Shown: positions 16,093 to 38,557 of the stretch, in pieces
How positions within the stretch are numbered: the first letter of the stretch is position 1
Layout: each line of letters opens with the position of its first letter
IMG/VR virus record: IMGVR_UViG_2925891887_000008
Length of the DNA: 38,557 nucleotides
Direction: 5' to 3' (one strand)
From: a virus
Taxonomy: Duplodnaviria; Heunggongvirae; Uroviricota; Caudoviricetes
Position numbers and translations under genes: made by a program
The notes under the pieces: generated by a model
Seen by the model: the letters and a program-made list of their open reading frames with translations, nothing else
What the model was told of the DNA's origin: nothing
Database searches by the model: none

Positions 16093-16147
16093 GGTGATGC
16101 TGCCAACTTACTGATTTAGTGTATGATGGTGTTTTTGAGGTGCTCCA

Positions 16148-16423
16148 GTGGCTTCTGTTTCTATCAGCTGTCCCTCCTGTTCAGCTACTGACGGGGTGGT
16201 GCGTAACGGCAAAAGCACCGCCGGACATCAGCGCTATCTCTGCTCTCACTGCCGTAAAACATGGCAACTGCAGTTCACTTACACCGCTTCTCAACCCGGT
16301 ACGCACCAGAAAATCATTGATATGGCCATGAATGGCGTTGGATGCCGGGCAACCGCCCGCATTATGGGCGTTGGCCTCAACACGATTTTCCGCCATTTAA
16401 AAAACTCAGGCCGCAGTCGGTAA
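16148..16423 (+). CDS. insA: IS1 InsA
   Basis: 91-aa [26 protein letters not shown]... typical of InsA. Confidence 0.85.
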
Positions 16424-16845
16424 CCTCGCGCATACAGCCGGGCAGTGACGTCATCGTCTGCGCGGAAATGGACGAACAGTGGGGATACGTCGGGGCTAAA
16501 TCGCGCCAGCGCTGGCTGTTTTACGCGTATGACAGGCTCCGGAAGACGGTTGTTGCGCACGTATTCGGTGAACGCACTATGGCGACACTGGGGCGTCTTA
16601 TGAGCCTGCTGTCACCCTTTGACGTGGTGATATGGATGACGGATGGCTGGCCGCTGTATGAATCCCGCCTGAAGGGAAAGCTGCACGTAATCAGCAAGCG
16701 ATATACGCAGCGAATTGAGCGGCATAACCTGAATCTGAGGCAGCACCTGGCACGGCTGGGACGGAAGTCGCTGTCGTTCTCAAAATCGGTGGAGCTGCAT
16801 GACAAAGTCATCGGGCATTATCTGAACATAAAACACTATCAATAA
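16342..16845 (+). CDS. insB: IS1 InsB frame (expressed as InsAB' by -1 frameshift)
   Basis: -1-frame ORF overlapping the insA 3' end; slippery A6C at 16399-16405. Confidence 0.8.
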
Positions 16846-16860
16846 GTTGGAGTCATTACC

Positions 16861-21741: not shown

Positions 21742-22800
21742 TTACGCTCCGGTTTCTGCTGCGGCGGCGCTGAAGTCGCCAATCTGGATGTTTTCCACCA
21801 GTGCGGCGCAGCGGTAGTCCTCAACCACATAGGCTTCGTTAACGGATTCAAAATTTTCAATCCGGTCACGTTTCGGGTTGTCGATAACTGAACGGCGGCG
21901 GGTGTCTTCCTGCCAGTAGATGGACAGGTTATCCAGACGGGTGATTAGCAGCGCATTCGGCGGGAAGAACGGCGCACGCACGGCCTGCAGGCCACCCATG
22001 CGTTTCTGACTGATGATCATATCGGCAGCCAGTTTTTCACTGTTTTCCTGCTCTTTGTTGACCAGCGGGAAATACTTGTCAGACAGCAGTTCACGCCCGC
22101 AAATAACCACCAGATCGTCATCGTCCTGGTAAACCATGTCGATAAGCTCATTGACGGCATCCATCACTACGGCGTCCAGGTTGGCATATTCGCCACCTTT
22201 CCCGACTTTCACCGCACCCGGTGTGGTTTCACCGCCCGTGGTGGTGCTGCCCATGACGTGATCCGGTGCATCCTCACGGATTTTCTGCAGCCAGCCTTTA
22301 TTCACATCCTGCAGCAGCGGGTTTTCGCTACGGTTGGAGGTTTTCGCACGCTTCACGCCGTTAAAGCCGATCATGATGCGGTCCAGTGCCTGACGTTTCA
22401 CGATGGCGTCACGGATACGCACCTGGAAATCCTGAAACTTCGCCCACAGGTCCAGCTTCGCGTAGGTCAGCACCGTGTCAAAGTTGGTCTGCTCGCATTT
22501 ATATTCCACATTGACCATCAGCGTCGGATCGACAGGTTCACGCTCTTTCGCGGTGGTATCAGTGGTTCCGGCAATGGTGCTGCCAACACCCAGCCCCAGC
22601 AACTGACCGGACTGCTCAGTCACTGGCGTGACGTTAATCAGTGTCAGGAAAGCGGCGGACTGCTGGATCTGGTCTTCCAGCGTCTGCTGCACGGACGGTT
22701 CGACGGTGAACTTGCTGGACAGTTCTTCAACTGCAACACCGTTCAGACGCGCCAGCTGCTGCAGGTAAGCGTTAAAAGCAAAGCGGGTATTCTTCTTCAT
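21742..22800 (-). CDS. N: Major capsid protein N
   Basis: 352-aa ORF after O. Confidence 0.9.
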   Translation of the reverse strand: MKKNTRFAFNAYLQQLARLNGVAVEELSSKFTVEPSVQQTLEDQIQQSAAFLTLINVTPVTEQSGQLLGLGVGSTIAGTTDTTAKEREPVDPTLMVNVEYKCEQTNFDTVLTYAKLDLWAKFQDFQVRIRDAIVKRQALDRIMIGFNGVKRAKTSNRSENPLLQDVNKGWLQKIREDAPDHVMGSTTTGGETTPGAVKVGKGGEYANLDAVVMDAVNELIDMVYQDDDDLVVICGRELLSDKYFPLVNKEQENSEKLAADMIISQKRMGGLQAVRAPFFPPNALLITRLDNLSIYWQEDTRRRSVIDNPKRDRIENFESVNEAYVVEDYRCAALVENIQIGDFSAAAAETGA

Positions 22801-28724: not shown

Positions 28725-28958
28725 TTAATGCAGCCAGCTGTCGTCTTCCCACACCTTCTGCATAATCTTCATCACTTGTTTTCTTTCTTCGTCCAGTTGC
28801 AGTCCGGTCAGTTCCACACCGTTAGAGCTACCTTTGCGGATGCGAATTACCGTTTTGGGATACAGGGGGCGCAGATTGCGGTAAAGCTCGGATTCAAGGG
28901 CGTCCAGGGTAGACTGGCTAATCTTCTGCTCTTTATCGATCATTATTTCAATGCGCAT
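28725..28958 (-). CDS. dinI: DinI-family protein (DNA-damage-inducible protein I-like)
   Basis: MRIEIMIDKEQKIS...LDALESEL...KVWEDDSW parallels E. coli DinI; start taken at the internal Met. Confidence 0.75.
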   Translation of the reverse strand: MRIEIMIDKEQKISQSTLDALESELYRNLRPLYPKTVIRIRKGSSNGVELTGLQLDEERKQVMKIMQKVWEDDSWLH

Positions 28959-28968
28959 AAAGGTCACC

Positions 28969-29157
28969 TCAGCTGATGACATCCATTGAGCGGTTGTATT
29001 CGTGGGTTCTGATTTTTGCCATGAGTTCATCTGTCAGTTCAGAAACCCACTGCAAAGCCAGCCCCTTCTCTTCATCACTACACTCACTAGCCGCTACAAG
29101 CTTAAGAAAAAAATCAATGCGCTGGAGCTTCAAAGACTCCAAAAAATAGTCCTGCAT
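28969..29157 (-). CDS. Small SOS-controlled ORF (62 aa) upstream of dinI-like gene; possible Tum-like antirepressor N-module
   Basis: RBS GGAGG, ATG at 29157, LexA box about 45 bp upstream. Confidence 0.4.
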   Translation of the reverse strand: MQDYFLESLKLQRIDFFLKLVAASECSDEEKGLALQWVSELTDELMAKIRTHEYNRSMDVIS

Positions 29158-29200
29158 CTTTCCTCCTATGACACCACAAGCAATACTGTATACATAACCA

Positions 29201-29216
29201 CTGTTTATATTTACAG
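29201..29216. promoter_or_regulatory. LexA box (CTGTTTATATTTACAG)
   Basis: Perfect CTGT-N8-ACAG with AT-rich spacer, upstream of the minus-strand small ORF and dinI-like gene. Confidence 0.6.
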
Positions 29217-29310
29217 CACATAATAATCTTACTGATGTAAAACGTTTTTTTACGTTCATTAGCCTGATATGCCTGGTATTATTAAGAGCACGAATTGTTA
29301 ACCCGCGTAA

Positions 29311-34505: not shown

Positions 34506-35075
34506 ATGAATTTGGAGAAAGGCGGACGAGGCGCTATAGAGCGCATGGTAGAAGCTTATGGATTCAAAACTCGACAGGCGTTGTGCGATCATTTAGGAAT
34601 CTCTAAAAGTACACTCGCTACACGCTACATGCGTGACTCATTCCCAGCAGAATGGGTAATCCAGTGCGCCCTTGAAACGGGCACCTCGCTTAATTGGCTC
34701 ACAACTGGACATGGTTCAAAGCAAACTTCAGGTAATACAAATACGATGGAAGTTGCTAAATATGTATTATCTGATGGTGCCTTGCGTGAAGACGGTTTTT
34801 ATATTTTTGATAAGGGATTTCTACCCTCTACGTTTAAAAAACCTTTTGTCATCACAGATAACAATTCTGAATTTATTTGTGATAAAGAATTTGATGATAT
34901 ACGTGATGGTAAATGGGTAATAAGTATTGATGGCGAAATAACAATCCGCGACATTACTCGTTTACCCGGTGGAAGAATCTTCGTTGAAGGTGGAAACAGA
35001 ACCTTCGAGTGCAAGATAGAAGATGTTGAAATAATTGGAAAAATTATAAGTTTGACAATTAAGTACGTTAGGTAA
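34506..35075 (+). CDS. cI: CI immunity repressor (186-like)
   Basis: 189-aa protein with N-terminal HTH-like region (EAYGFKTRQALCDHLGISKSTLATRY), RBS GGAG; the track ORF starts 6 nt upstream at a GTG. Confidence 0.8.
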   Translation: MNLEKGGRGAIERMVEAYGFKTRQALCDHLGISKSTLATRYMRDSFPAEWVIQCALETGTSLNWLTTGHGSKQTSGNTNTMEVAKYVLSDGALREDGFYIFDKGFLPSTFKKPFVITDNNSEFICDKEFDDIRDGKWVISIDGEITIRDITRLPGGRIFVEGGNRTFECKIEDVEIIGKIISLTIKYVR

Positions 35076-35090
35076 TACCGGGAGGAAACT

Positions 35091-35282
35091 ATGCTTGGTA
35101 AGGTATTTTTTGTGGTTTTATCATGCTCTTTGTTATTAAACCCACTAACTACCTATGCTAAAAATTATCCTTGTTCTGGGAAAAAGGGAGGTGTCTCTCA
35201 CTGTACCTCCGATGGAAAGTTCGTTTGCAATGATGGAACTATTAGTAAATCAAAAAAAATCTGTACTAAAAACTCGCGATAA
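35091..35282 (+). CDS. Small secreted Cys-containing peptide (63 aa), unknown function
   Basis: Strong RBS GGGAGG, signal peptide (...TYA/KN), five Cys in the mature part; AT-rich. Confidence 0.4.
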
Positions 35283-35425
35283 TTTTTGCTTTTATATCTG
35301 CGCCTAATATAACAATGAGCCGCAGGCTAACCGCAAAAGTCACATACTCACATAGCAAAAAATAGCCAACTTCATTATGGCTTCAGTGAGATGTATGGTC
35401 GCAAGATTTCATACATTGACACTGG

Positions 35426-35433
35426 TTATACAT
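35426..35433. repeat. ISL3-family element target-site duplication, left copy (TTATACAT)
   Basis: Identical 8-mer flanks both ends of the element. Confidence 0.75.
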
Positions 35434-36748
35434 GGGTCTTCCCTTGTTGTGGTGGCTGAAGGCATGATAATGGTGTATTTAATCGCCAGAGGTCACCGCC
35501 ATGGACGAAAAGTCCCTCTACGCTCATATTCTCAACCTGTCCGATCCGTGGCAGGTAAAGTCCCTTTCTCTCGATGAAAATGCCGGTTCTGTTACTGTCA
35601 CTATTGAGATCGCTGAAAACACCCGGCTAGCCTGTCCGACCTGCGGTAAATCCTGTTCTGTTCACGATCACCGTCATCGTAAATGGCGCCATCTTGATAC
35701 CTGCCAGTTCACCACTATTGTTGAAGCCGATGTTCCACGAATTATGTGTCCGGAGCATGGCTGCCTGACGTTGCCTGTTCCGTGGGCTGGCCCCGGAAGC
35801 CGGTATACGTTGCTATTCGAATCGTTCGTTCTCTCATGGCTGAAAATCAGCACCGTTGATGCTGTCAGGAAGCAACTTAAGCTCAGTTGGAATGCGGTTG
35901 ACGGCATTATGACCCGGGCAGTTAAGCGAGGTCTTGCCCGGATAAAAAAGCCATTATCCGCCCGTCATATGAATGTGGATGAGGTCGCCTTTAAAAAAGG
36001 ACATCGTTACATAACGGTGATCTCCGATCGCGATGGTCGGGCGCTGGCCTTAACGGATGATCGCGGCACAGAGAGTCTTGCCGGCTATCTTCGCACGCTC
36101 ACTGATGGGCAGTTGCTGGCTATCAAAACGCTCTCAATGGACATGAACGCGGGCTATATAAGAGCAGCGCGTATCCACTTACCCAGTGCGGTTGAGAAAA
36201 TCGCCTTTGACCGCTTCCATGTGGCGAAGCAACTGGGCGAGGTAGTTGATAAAACCCGTCAGAATGAACATCCGCACCTCCCTGTTGAAAGCCGACACCA
36301 GGCAAAAGGAACCCGCTTCCTGTGGCAGTACAGCGATAAGTGGATGACCGAATCCCGGCAGGAAAAGCTGATGTGGCTGCGTGCACAGATGAAGCTGACG
36401 AGCCAGTGCTGGGCGCTGAAAGAGCTGGCAAAGGATATCTGGAACAGGCCATGGAGCGAGGAAAGACGGAGTGACTGGCAGAGATGGTTGGCGCTGGCGG
36501 CTAACAGTGACGTTCCCATGATGAAAAATGCCGCGAAAACGATAGGAAAAAGGCTGTACGGGATCCTGAATGCGATGCGACACAGTGTCTCAAACGGAAA
36601 TGCGGAGGCACTTAACAGCAAGATCAGGCTGCTGAGGATAAAAGCCAGGGGATACCGAAACCGGGAGCGCTTTAAACTGGGGGTGATGTTCCACTACGGA
36701 AAGCTGAATATGGCGTTCTGAGCCTTCCCACCATGATCGGGGAAGACC
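35434..36748 (+). mobile_element. ISL3-family insertion sequence (1315 bp)
   Basis: Imperfect terminal inverted repeats GGGTCTTCCC..TGGTGG at both ends, single transposase ORF, 8-bp duplication. Confidence 0.8.
35501..36721 (+). CDS. ISL3-family transposase
   Basis: 406-aa ORF with N-terminal zinc-ribbon-like CPTCG...CPEHGC and a DDE-like core. Confidence 0.8.
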   Translation: MDEKSLYAHILNLSDPWQVKSLSLDENAGSVTVTIEIAENTRLACPTCGKSCSVHDHRHRKWRHLDTCQFTTIVEADVPRIMCPEHGCLTLPVPWAGPGSRYTLLFESFVLSWLKISTVDAVRKQLKLSWNAVDGIMTRAVKRGLARIKKPLSARHMNVDEVAFKKGHRYITVISDRDGRALALTDDRGTESLAGYLRTLTDGQLLAIKTLSMDMNAGYIRAARIHLPSAVEKIAFDRFHVAKQLGEVVDKTRQNEHPHLPVESRHQAKGTRFLWQYSDKWMTESRQEKLMWLRAQMKLTSQCWALKELAKDIWNRPWSEERRSDWQRWLALAANSDVPMMKNAAKTIGKRLYGILNAMRHSVSNGNAEALNSKIRLLRIKARGYRNRERFKLGVMFHYGKLNMAF

Positions 36749-36756
36749 CTTATACA
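36749..36756. repeat. ISL3-family element target-site duplication, right copy (TTATACAT)
   Basis: Identical to 35426..35433. Confidence 0.75.
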
Positions 36757-36792
36757 TACAGTAAAAATGCTCTCTATTGGAGGGCATTTTTT

Positions 36793-37824
36793 ATGGCAGT
36801 ACGAAAACTCACCACAGGAAAATGGCTTTGCGAATGTTACCCCGCCGGACGTAGTGGGCGTCGTGTGCGTAAACAATTCGCCACCAAAGGCGAAGCACTG
36901 GCTTTTGAGCGTCACACGATGGAAGAAACCGAAGCAAAGCCCTGGCTGGGCGAATCAGTAGATCGTCGAACCCTGAAAGACGTGGTTGAGCTATGGTTCA
37001 AACTACATGGTAAATCTCTGACTGCTGGGCAGCATGTCTATGACAAATTGCTGCTGATGGTTGACGCTCTGGGCAATCCCCTTGCAACCGATCTCACATC
37101 TAAAATGTTTGCCCATTATCGAGATAAACGACTGACAGGTGAGATCTACTTCAGCGAGAAATGGAAGAAAGGGGCCAGCCCGGTCACCATTAACCTGGAG
37201 CAAAGCTATCTAAGTAGTGTTTTTAGCGAACTATCCCGCCTGGGCGAATGGTCGTATCCAAACCCACTGGAGAACATGCGAAAATTCACCATCGCAGAAA
37301 AAGAGATGGCATGGCTTACCCATGAGCAGATTGTTGAACTGCTGGATGATTGCAAACGTCAGGACCCAATTCTGGCACTGGTAGTCAAGATATGCTTAAG
37401 CACAGGCGCACGCTGGCGAGAAGCAATAAACCTAACCCGATCACAGGTGACCAAATACCGAATTACCTTTGTAAGAACGAAGGGGAAGAAAAACAGAAGC
37501 ATCCCTATCAGTAAAGAGCTTTATGAAGAGATCATGGCGCTTGATGGGTTCAATTTCTTCACAGACTGCTATTTTCAATTTTTATCCGTGATGGAAAAAA
37601 CGTCTATCGTGCTCCCTCGCGGTCAACTTACACACGTTCTGCGTCATACGTTTGCGGCGCATTTCATGATGTCGGGTGGAAACATCCTTGCTTTGCAAAA
37701 AATCCTCGGACATCACGACATAAAAATGACTATGCGTTATGCTCATCTATCACCTGATCACTTAGAGACAGCTCTTCGTTTCAATCCACTAGCAACTTTG
37801 GATGTTACTAAATCAGATTCTTAA
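36793..37824 (+). CDS. int: Tyrosine integrase (P2/186 family)
   Basis: MAVRKLTTGKW...LSTGARWREA...HVLRHTFA...YAHL has the tyrosine-recombinase catalytic residues; RBS GGAGG. The track ORF has a spurious upstream extension. Confidence 0.9.
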   Translation: MAVRKLTTGKWLCECYPAGRSGRRVRKQFATKGEALAFERHTMEETEAKPWLGESVDRRTLKDVVELWFKLHGKSLTAGQHVYDKLLLMVDALGNPLATDLTSKMFAHYRDKRLTGEIYFSEKWKKGASPVTINLEQSYLSSVFSELSRLGEWSYPNPLENMRKFTIAEKEMAWLTHEQIVELLDDCKRQDPILALVVKICLSTGARWREAINLTRSQVTKYRITFVRTKGKKNRSIPISKELYEEIMALDGFNFFTDCYFQFLSVMEKTSIVLPRGQLTHVLRHTFAAHFMMSGGNILALQKILGHHDIKMTMRYAHLSPDHLETALRFNPLATLDVTKSDS

Positions 37825-37834
37825 AGGTTCAAGC

Positions 37835-38557
37835 ATGGTTAAGTTTTTGTTTCAATTCCCAATATTCGACTTCTCCTTAACATTTGATATTATCGAGACG
37901 TTAATCACTCATAGCGAATCATCAATCGCTAAGGGTATAGCAGAATATAAAGACAAAGGACCTGAAGAATATATAATTGAAATATCTCCGGAAGATGGTG
38001 TATATCAGTCAATTGATCATTACATGGGACTCACCAGCTCATCGCTAGATCTCGATGAAATGTTTTTAGAATACTACCCAAGTATTATCCGCAGGTCAGT
38101 ATTCTTAACTATATTCGGAATTTTTGAGCACGAAATAGAAAAATTCTGTAACAACTTTGCTAATAGACATCATTCTCCTATAAATGTTTCAGATCTCAAA
38201 GGAAGTGGATTTGAGAGGAGCCATCTATTTATCAAAAAAATGATAGGGATGAAGTCAACATCCCACTATTCGAATATCAAAAAAATAACAAAATTAAGAA
38301 ACAGTTGTGCGCATAATGATGCAAAATACTTAGAAAACGATGGGCAAAATATTAAAAGCATTATTGAACTTATAGAAAAATATCCTGATTTTTTTAAAAA
38401 AGATGGAAAACAGGTCCTATTTATGGAGGGCTCGTTAAGCATGATCTTGAACTCATTCAAAGAGTATCTTTCTGATGTTGAAAGAGCCTTAGATGAATTC
38501 GAAAAACAAAGCACTAGTGGCGACAAAGTGGCGGCAGCGGTTGGCATTACCCCGTAA
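37835..38557 (+). CDS. AT-rich cargo protein (240 aa) with Rx4H (HEPN-like) motif; candidate abortive-infection/toxin RNase
   Basis: ATG at 37835; motif KLRNSCAHND fits the RNxxxH HEPN signature; the ORF crosses the att core and ends in host-side DNA. Confidence 0.45.
   Translation: MVKFLFQFPIFDFSLTFDIIETLITHSESSIAKGIAEYKDKGPEEYIIEISPEDGVYQSIDHYMGLTSSSLDLDEMFLEYYPSIIRRSVFLTIFGIFEHEIEKFCNNFANRHHSPINVSDLKGSGFERSHLFIKKMIGMKSTSHYSNIKKITKLRNSCAHNDAKYLENDGQNIKSIIELIEKYPDFFKKDGKQVLFMEGSLSMILNSFKEYLSDVERALDEFEKQSTSGDKVAAAVGITP
38518..38539. repeat. Prophage attachment core, right copy (TGGCGACAAAGTGGCGGCAGCG)
   Basis: 21 of 22 identity with 3281..3302. Confidence 0.6.

Follow-up and report, generated by a model that had tools for sequence, protein, structure and literature searches.

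Insertion of ISKox3 at the centre of a predicted SOS box in front of the integrase gene of a 186-like Escherichia coli prophage

The IMG/VR record IMGVR_UViG_2925891887_000008, a stretch of 38,557 nucleotides (nt) referred to here at its full length as the window, corresponds to the Escherichia coli chromosome from ybjC on, with a P2/186-like prophage inserted between ybjL and rcdA; the end of the window coincides with the stop codon of the last prophage gene. A complete copy of ISKox3, an insertion sequence (IS) of the ISL3 family, lies between the repressor gene cI and the integrase gene int of this prophage, which is a 186-like (Peduoviridae) prophage of E. coli. An earlier annotation of the same DNA, the original prediction, had already recognised an IS at this place; what it overlooked is that the 8-bp target is the exact centre of an SOS box, the LexA type of palindrome, and that ISKox3 is strongly specific for such boxes. 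The genes and repeats directly concerned are the following:

34506-35075, + strand: cI repressor gene, the upstream transcription unit (Pfam Phage_CI_repr and Phage_CI_C; RefSeq annotation of the identical prophage of strain AR_0019)
35426-35433, no strand: left target duplicate TTATACAT, 8 bp (direct end comparison)
35434-36749, + strand: ISKox3 (ISL3 family), complete, 1316 bp (DNA identity, inverted repeats, duplication, empty site)
35501-36721, + strand: transposase gene, 406 amino acids (aa), intact, codirectional with cI and int (list of open reading frames, Pfam)
36750-36757, no strand: right target duplicate TTATACAT, 8 bp (direct end comparison)
36793-37824, + strand: int, tyrosine integrase, 343 aa (Pfam Int_N and Phage_integrase)

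The element is 100% identical over all 1316 bp to copies annotated as ISKox3 in RefSeq, and its transposase DNA is identical to that of copies encoding WP_000343760.1. The 406-aa transposase is the product of the single long open reading frame (ORF) inside it, with Pfam matches to DDE_Tnp_ISL3 (1e-55), HTH_Tnp_ISL3 (3e-13) and Zn_ribbon_ISL3 (2e-11) and, by Pfam, no LexA-like domain. The terminal inverted repeats, GGGTCTTCCC and GGGAAGACCC, are perfect over the first 10 positions (10/10) and agree at 17 of the first 22 nt, while TTATACAT has two occurrences in the whole 38.5-kb window, both of them flanking ISKox3. The family, the lone transposase gene, the imperfect repeats, the 8-bp duplication and the location between the cI side and int are thus as originally described, with small corrections of measure: the element is 1316 and not 1315 bp long, the region ends one base further on than 36756, with the right duplicate, and the 37 bp given between insertion and int is right within that one-base coordinate error, there being 35 nt from the right duplicate, and 43 nt from the end of ISKox3, to the int ATG (36793).

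Joining the two flanks with one copy of TTATACAT gives an empty site that is found with 1077/1077 identity in at least 14 E. coli chromosomes, where the order of annotated genes is CI, then a hypothetical protein, then integrase. Such a precise empty site means that the insertion is genuine, simple and recent, and that it is real is virtually certain. ISKox3 is an active element in the laboratory, de novo insertions having been reported (PMC12057282). It is also widespread, with a copy (at least 80% coverage) in 1278 of 5426 complete E. coli genomes, about one quarter, and the identical element is carried by 46-kb IncX3 plasmids as well. This particular junction between ISKox3 and int occurs in none of the 5426 genomes.

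The LexA box of gammaproteobacteria is a 20-bp palindrome, TACTG(TA)5CAGTA, of the form CTG-N10-CAG with an AT-rich centre. When the target of ISKox3 is rebuilt, it reads TTGACA-CTGGTTATACATACAGT-AAAAAT, that is, a consensus -35 hexamer, a 17-nt spacer and a -10 with 4 of 6 matches (10/12 overall). This is the top promoter-like match of the region in a promoter scan of the empty-site locus (L001), and the same scan does not find it in the occupied window. The spacer contains the palindrome CACTG-GTTATACATA-CAGTA, again CTG-N10-CAG, and the exact centre of the rebuilt box, CACTGGTTATACATACAGTA, is the 8-bp duplication TTATACAT. The box thus lies inside the spacer of a predicted promoter, 30 nt upstream of int, and in the window its parts are distributed as follows:

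35416-35421, + strand: TTGACA, -35 hexamer, now parted from its -10 (promoter scan of L001)
35420-35433, no strand: left half of the split SOS box, CACTGG + TTATACAT (box reconstruction and matrix score)
36750-36763, no strand: right half of the split SOS box, TTATACAT + ACAGTA (end comparison and matrix score)
36763-36768, + strand: AAAAAT, -10-like hexamer (promoter scan of L001)
36763-36791, + strand: hairpin with a 13-bp stem followed by a T run, containing the int Shine-Dalgarno sequence GGAGGG at 36779-36784 (RNA fold)

The same positional rule holds at many other loci. We gathered every stretch carrying the 30-nt left end of ISKox3 from one genome per species, from metagenomes and from viral contigs, and the triplet CTG stands at exactly -12 to -10 in 95 of 105 distinct left flanks, against 0-4 occurrences at any other offset (binomial P about 1e-158 versus 1/64). 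On the other side, CAG stands at +10 to +12 in 53-56 of 61 right flanks, both triplets are in register as CTG-N10-CAG in 26 of the 28 distinct copies with an intact duplication, and 82 of 92 clusters of unrelated flanking DNA conform. The target logo, TACTGT[ATATATAT]ACAGTA (in full, TACTGTATATATATACAGTA), is the textbook LexA consensus. The ORFs whose 5' ends face the insertions encode, by NCBIfam and Pfam, UmuD, SbmC, DinI, DNA polymerase IV, RecA, SSB, Cho, YdjM, SulA and DinD, and short S24 peptidases and DinI-like phage genes face them likewise. ISKox3 occupies the sbmC SOS box, between sbmC and dacD, in 73 of the 5426 complete E. coli genomes, and in a related prophage with a different box sequence the same position upstream of int is taken by ISKox3 in 7 genomes and by a relative in 1. 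For relatives of ISKox3 with a slightly different left end and different interiors, 18 of 19 loci conform.

We hold with very high confidence that SOS boxes are the specific target sites of ISKox3 and its close relatives. Strand transfer takes place directly past CTGT on each strand, so that the central 8 bp of TACTGT-N8-ACAGTA are duplicated, and targeting of this kind at so many loci means that the position upstream of int is not due to chance. Selection rather than targeting as the main cause was considered and rejected, since selection could not account for 8-bp duplications lying precisely at the dyad centre of 82 unrelated loci. Likewise, the half boxes are not part of ISKox3 itself, given that the empty site holds one complete box and that the centres differ among copies.

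Some further features of these copies deserve mention on their own account. Target duplications are absent from 32 of 60 distinct complete ISKox3 copies (loci L006-L133), although 20 of these copies are bordered left and right by half SOS boxes. This suggests either rearrangement by recombination between copies residing in different boxes, or chimeric assembly of draft and metagenome contigs. Many of these copies belong to Candidatus Symbiopectobacterium, in which ISKox3 occupies the boxes of recA, ssb, sulA, cho and ydjM. In certain relatives of ISKox3, the left end is followed by a passenger gene ahead of the transposase gene (L003 2365-4249; L228; L234): a 172-aa protein of the ClbS/DfsB family in a 1885-bp relative and a 116-aa ORF in a 1684-bp one. 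In E. coli ZY22049 the 1885-bp relative occupies the very position at which seven other genomes have ISKox3, with TGTTATAT duplicated in both cases. On an IncX3 plasmid, ISKox3 adjoins a 79-aa ORF and an S24-peptidase/umuD-like operon, and a recurrent 79-aa ORF (MPRxYEIDxAWR...) precedes S24-peptidase/umuD-like genes immediately behind many ISKox3-occupied SOS boxes (L216 2227-2466; L024, L109, L114 and others); it belongs to no Pfam family.

Whether the palindrome in front of int is itself a LexA box was addressed with a weight matrix built from the ISKox3 targets, all int sites being excluded. Applied to phage 186 (NC_001317), the matrix singles out the annotated LexA site, with a score of 22.7 against 12.7 for the next best. 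In the IS-free version of the window, the top site is the box CACTGGTTATACATACAGTA at int, with 20.1, where 200 shuffles reached a maximum of 17.2 and the rest of the sequence, apart from the int site and positions 29184-29218, does not exceed 13.1. The second locus, which is intact and has the following place in the window, lies upstream of a small ORF and a DinI-like gene (28725-29030):

29184-29218, - strand: second SOS-box locus with two overlapping boxes, the counterpart of 186 p95/tum (scores 20.0 and 15.2)

Its homologue in a viral contig (L111) carries a copy of ISKox3.

Natural variation of the region is also informative. Among 23 int-upstream variants, including that of Klebsiella phage 4LV2017, ACTG and ACAGT are invariant while the centre takes at least 10 different forms. 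The DNA farther upstream is wholly different in 80 viral contigs whose int is the same (98-100% identical), in phage 4LV2017 and in an E. coli phage; these keep a module in which ACATTGA, ACTG, the variable centre, ACAGT and a -10-like hexamer are followed by the hairpin, a T run and the ATG, and its box scores range from 13.8 to 21.9. The hairpin is retained in both sequence types with one compensatory change (GTCCTC/GAGGAC); this covariation is read from one variant, as in the alignment MAFFT shifts the 3' arm of the second sequence type by one column, which makes a pair count uninformative. A further element of the region is conserved in the int-upstream variants of other prophages with partly matching changes:

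35392-35415, no strand: inverted repeat TGTATG-N12-CATACA directly upstream of the -35 (single occurrence in the window)

From the matrix scores and this pattern of conservation, we consider it probable, by a fair margin, that the box upstream of int serves as a functional LexA operator of this gene. One could object that the palindrome is no LexA operator at all, that ISKox3 simply prefers AT-rich palindromes with CTGT/ACAG flanks, and that the insertion is neutral, with int expressed by read-through. ISL3 elements are generally described as favouring AT-rich targets, and a preference of that sort would also accommodate the capsule-gene insertions of ISKox3 with AT-rich duplications (PMC12057282). 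Against such a neutral event stand the target sites upstream of ten canonical SOS genes, the capacity of a matrix derived from them to pick out the annotated LexA site of 186, the invariance of CTG and CAG around a drifting centre in the int-upstream variants, as expected for an operator, and the location of the palindrome within a promoter-like spacer. We regard this alternative as very unlikely.

How the interrupted module would have worked can be proposed from its parts. The hairpin at 36763-36791 has a predicted energy of -18.5 kcal/mol (z = -5.4), and the structure is absent from the fold of an RNA beginning at about 36775, the start expected for the predicted promoter. We infer that the hairpin is terminator-like and/or masks the int ribosome-binding site in transcripts begun upstream. 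In the uninterrupted prophage, LexA would repress the int promoter, and transcripts arriving from the cI side would carry a hairpin that hides the ribosome-binding site of int or ends them, so that DNA damage would switch on the antirepressor operon (29184-29218) and int together. Insertion of ISKox3 at the dyad centre of the box, with duplication of its central 8 bp, leaves the -35 1324 bp away from the -10 and only a half-operator at each junction.

Neither the promoter scan of the occupied window nor direct reading finds a replacement promoter supplied by ISKox3. A hybrid of the right IS end with the surviving -10 was discarded, as the bases 16-18 nt upstream (GGGGAA, GGGAAG, GGAAGA) are unlike TTGACA and the scan is negative; the reverse combination, the upstream -35 with a -10 from the left IS end (TTCCCT), was rejected by direct reading. 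After the insertion, all transcripts reaching int, whether from the transposase gene or from cI, would include the masking hairpin. SOS-inducible Int, and hence excision, would then be strongly reduced, with immunity and the SOS induction of the lytic genes unaffected. Taken as a whole, we judge it quite probable that ISKox3 sits in the centre of the SOS box and promoter of int and cuts its SOS-inducible expression. The original prediction that int expression is likely to be altered fits well with the splitting of a predicted operator and promoter. For the final consequence, a reduced excision of the prophage, we lean only slightly towards a positive answer.

The route that had been suggested for this effect was another one, namely that in 186-type phages int is expressed from the cI transcript. 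Phage 186 shares with the prophage of the window the regulatory set cI, apl-like gene, cII and fil, as well as an SOS operon with a LexA box and a DinI-like/Tum gene, and its Int is 55% identical to that of the window. In 186 itself the suggestion is correct, since cI and int abut, sharing base 22433, and are annotated as one 'lysogenic operon' from pL/pE. It is not transferable as it stood to the present prophage, where, unlike in 186, a 63-aa ORF, a 186-nt spacer and a promoter-like site intervene between cI and int:

35091-35282, + strand: 63-aa cargo ORF between cI and int, annotated as hypothetical or YdcA family (ORF list, annotation)

Moreover, the matrix scan of the 186 genome finds no LexA site near int, its sole site being that of p95, whereas int of the window has its own predicted module of promoter, SOS box and hairpin, retained whatever lies upstream. 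The interval between cI and int behaves as a variable cargo slot, occupied here by the 63-aa ORF and in relatives by unrelated genes of 945, 1050 and 1677 bp (L002, L237, L238). The 63-aa ORF has no Pfam or PADLOC match, and its N-terminus is hydrophobic and resembles a signal peptide.

These comparisons bear on a second alternative, in which int is only the distal gene of a cI lysogenic transcript from pL/pE, as in 186, and ISKox3 acts as a 1.3-kb polar block whose target has no regulatory meaning. The 186 record does place cI and int in one operon, and in the window cI, the 63-aa ORF, the transposase gene and int are all codirectional, with no + strand terminator predicted between cI and ISKox3; in addition, integration in undamaged cells requires Int made independently of LexA. 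Yet int does not abut cI here, and the conserved module stays with int while the genes upstream vary; in the promoter scan this module outranks every other site of the region, among the LexA-like sites of the window the palindrome comes first, and a hairpin would cover the int ribosome-binding site in any read-through transcript. Polarity as the full explanation therefore seems unlikely to us, and it is compatible with the disruption of the int operator as a second, additive effect. The most direct effect predicted for the insertion is the destruction of an SOS-type operator and promoter of int, with cI-int polarity secondary and not exclusive.

A third alternative would have the insertion maintain or even raise the level of Int. 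The right end of ISKox3 provides a start codon in frame with int:

36733-36735, + strand: ATG in the right ISKox3 end (ORF 36733-37824, + 20 codons, 11 nt past the transposase stop)

On transposase transcripts running out of ISKox3, ribosomes ending at the transposase stop codon (36719-36721) could restart at this ATG, melt the hairpin and produce a 363-aa, N-terminally extended Int independent of LexA. The reading frame 36733-37824 is open, in frame and only 11 nt past the stop, and no + strand terminator is predicted inside ISKox3. Nevertheless, direct reading reveals no Shine-Dalgarno sequence ahead of this ATG, the expression of IS transposase genes is usually weak, the 20-residue extension may impair Int, and a match of frames is expected one time in three by chance. 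Such a coupled synthesis is, in our opinion, the least probable of the three alternatives, and a most improbable account of the locus.

Several points weigh against the operator-splitting model that we favour, and they concern both the target rule and the proposed control of int. About 10% of the natural ISKox3 flanks are non-conforming, and under selection the element has been found in capsule genes with AT-rich duplications (PMC12057282); the preference for SOS boxes is consequently strong, not absolute. The weight matrix derives from IS targets and not from footprinted LexA sites, and its validation covered one annotated site only, together with some further known ones. LexA binding to the palindrome and a transcript start at this place are both predictions from sequence. 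The -10 hexamer AAAAAT matches at 4 of 6 positions only, and a simple terminator pattern scan did not call the hairpin in front of int. Since integration also takes place in undamaged cells with active LexA and requires Int there, part of the int expression must come from upstream transcripts of the pL/pE type, as originally suggested, and a requirement for such expression implies that the hairpin is no absolute block. Finally, the in-frame ATG at 36733 could permit some transposase-coupled synthesis of Int.

Concerning previous work, the element itself is the named ISKox3, common on IncX3 blaNDM plasmids, from which it differs in nothing, be it DNA, transposase, inverted repeats or the 8-bp duplication. 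What appears to be new is its position and the rule behind it, the centre of SOS boxes, a specificity that appears not to have been described. We found no publication linking ISKox3 or ISL3 elements to LexA boxes within a literature coverage that is incomplete and leaves an earlier description possible; among 87 publications naming ISKox3, none mentions LexA. Publications naming both ISKox3 and SOS appear epidemiological by title and abstract, and in one of them SOS stands only in gene product names; matches for ISL3 and LexA seem unrelated, judging from titles and abstracts, and searches for LexA boxes together with IS target specificity, or for a LexA box at int of P2-like phages, returned nothing relevant in the former case and no publication in the latter.

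There are, on the other hand, known elements that choose their targets in a comparable manner. IS1202-group elements adjoin the XerC sites of dif/pdif (PMC10132070), and IS1397, ISKpn1 and ISPpu9 insert into repetitive extragenic palindromes (REP) (PMC1525189, PMC12288879). ISKox3 resembles them in its fixed insertion position relative to a short conserved host motif at many unrelated loci, but its motif is the LexA operator, insertion occurs at the dyad centre and in either orientation, and the operator is destroyed each time; its transposase belongs to the ISL3 type rather than to IS1202, IS3 or IS110. For the proposed control of int, the closest parallels are recombinase genes under LexA, such as the integron integrase intI (PMC3108266) and ccrAB of SCCmec (PMC5397144), in which a LexA box over the recombinase promoter makes recombination dependent on DNA damage, as we propose here. 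Control of intI and ccrAB has been shown experimentally, whereas the box of int, the tyrosine integrase gene of a P2/186-type prophage, is proposed from sequence, conservation and the specificity of the IS.

The remainder of the prophage is of interest in its own right. Its regulatory genes (cI, an apl-like gene, cII and fil) follow the 186 pattern, and, two additional insertion sequences apart, ISKox3 and an IS1, the window matches strain AR_0019 at 99.9-100% identity. The IS1 (768 bp, 16093-16860, with the 9-bp duplication CAGGAACAG) breaks up a prophage cargo gene of which AR_0019 has an intact version, annotated there as a protein with a GmrSD restriction endonuclease domain; PADLOC gives NsnA/PD-T4-2-like hits for this gene, and its disruption would therefore mean the inactivation of a candidate anti-phage defence gene. 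Neither Pfam nor PADLOC gives a match for the last prophage gene, located 3' of int (37835-38557; 240 aa in the annotation of AR_0019).

On a broader scale, we put forward, as a tentative idea that we hold to be slightly less probable than its opposite, that a clade of ISL3 elements around ISKox3 homes on the dyad centre of LexA operators, possibly guided by bound LexA, and erases one operator with each hop. Through them, IncX3/NDM plasmids entering new hosts would rewire the SOS regulon there (sbmC, umuDC, dinB, sulA, recA and others) together with prophage induction and excision, and 186-like prophages would possess an unrecognised SOS-controlled int promoter. Targeting may be directed by the sequence or tethered to LexA, and ISKox3 offers a tractable system for studying how a DDE transposase reads the operator of a transcription factor or the bound factor. 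The element is an ordinary one, the positional rule is not: an IS carried by epidemic carbapenemase plasmids appears to seek LexA operators, which gives a mechanistic reason for ISKox3 being drawn in every case beside 'umuD' on IncX3 maps. If this is true, the acquisition of IncX3 plasmids would progressively strip LexA control from translesion polymerases, from inhibitors of cell division and gyrase, and from recA, and it would alter how prophages are induced and excised; mutagenesis and phage-mediated gene transfer might be affected. ISKox3 can also be seen as a natural probe for SOS boxes, which here flags a candidate int promoter under LexA control in a family of prophages that is widespread; for the present strain, the prediction is that of a prophage still inducible and poorly excising.

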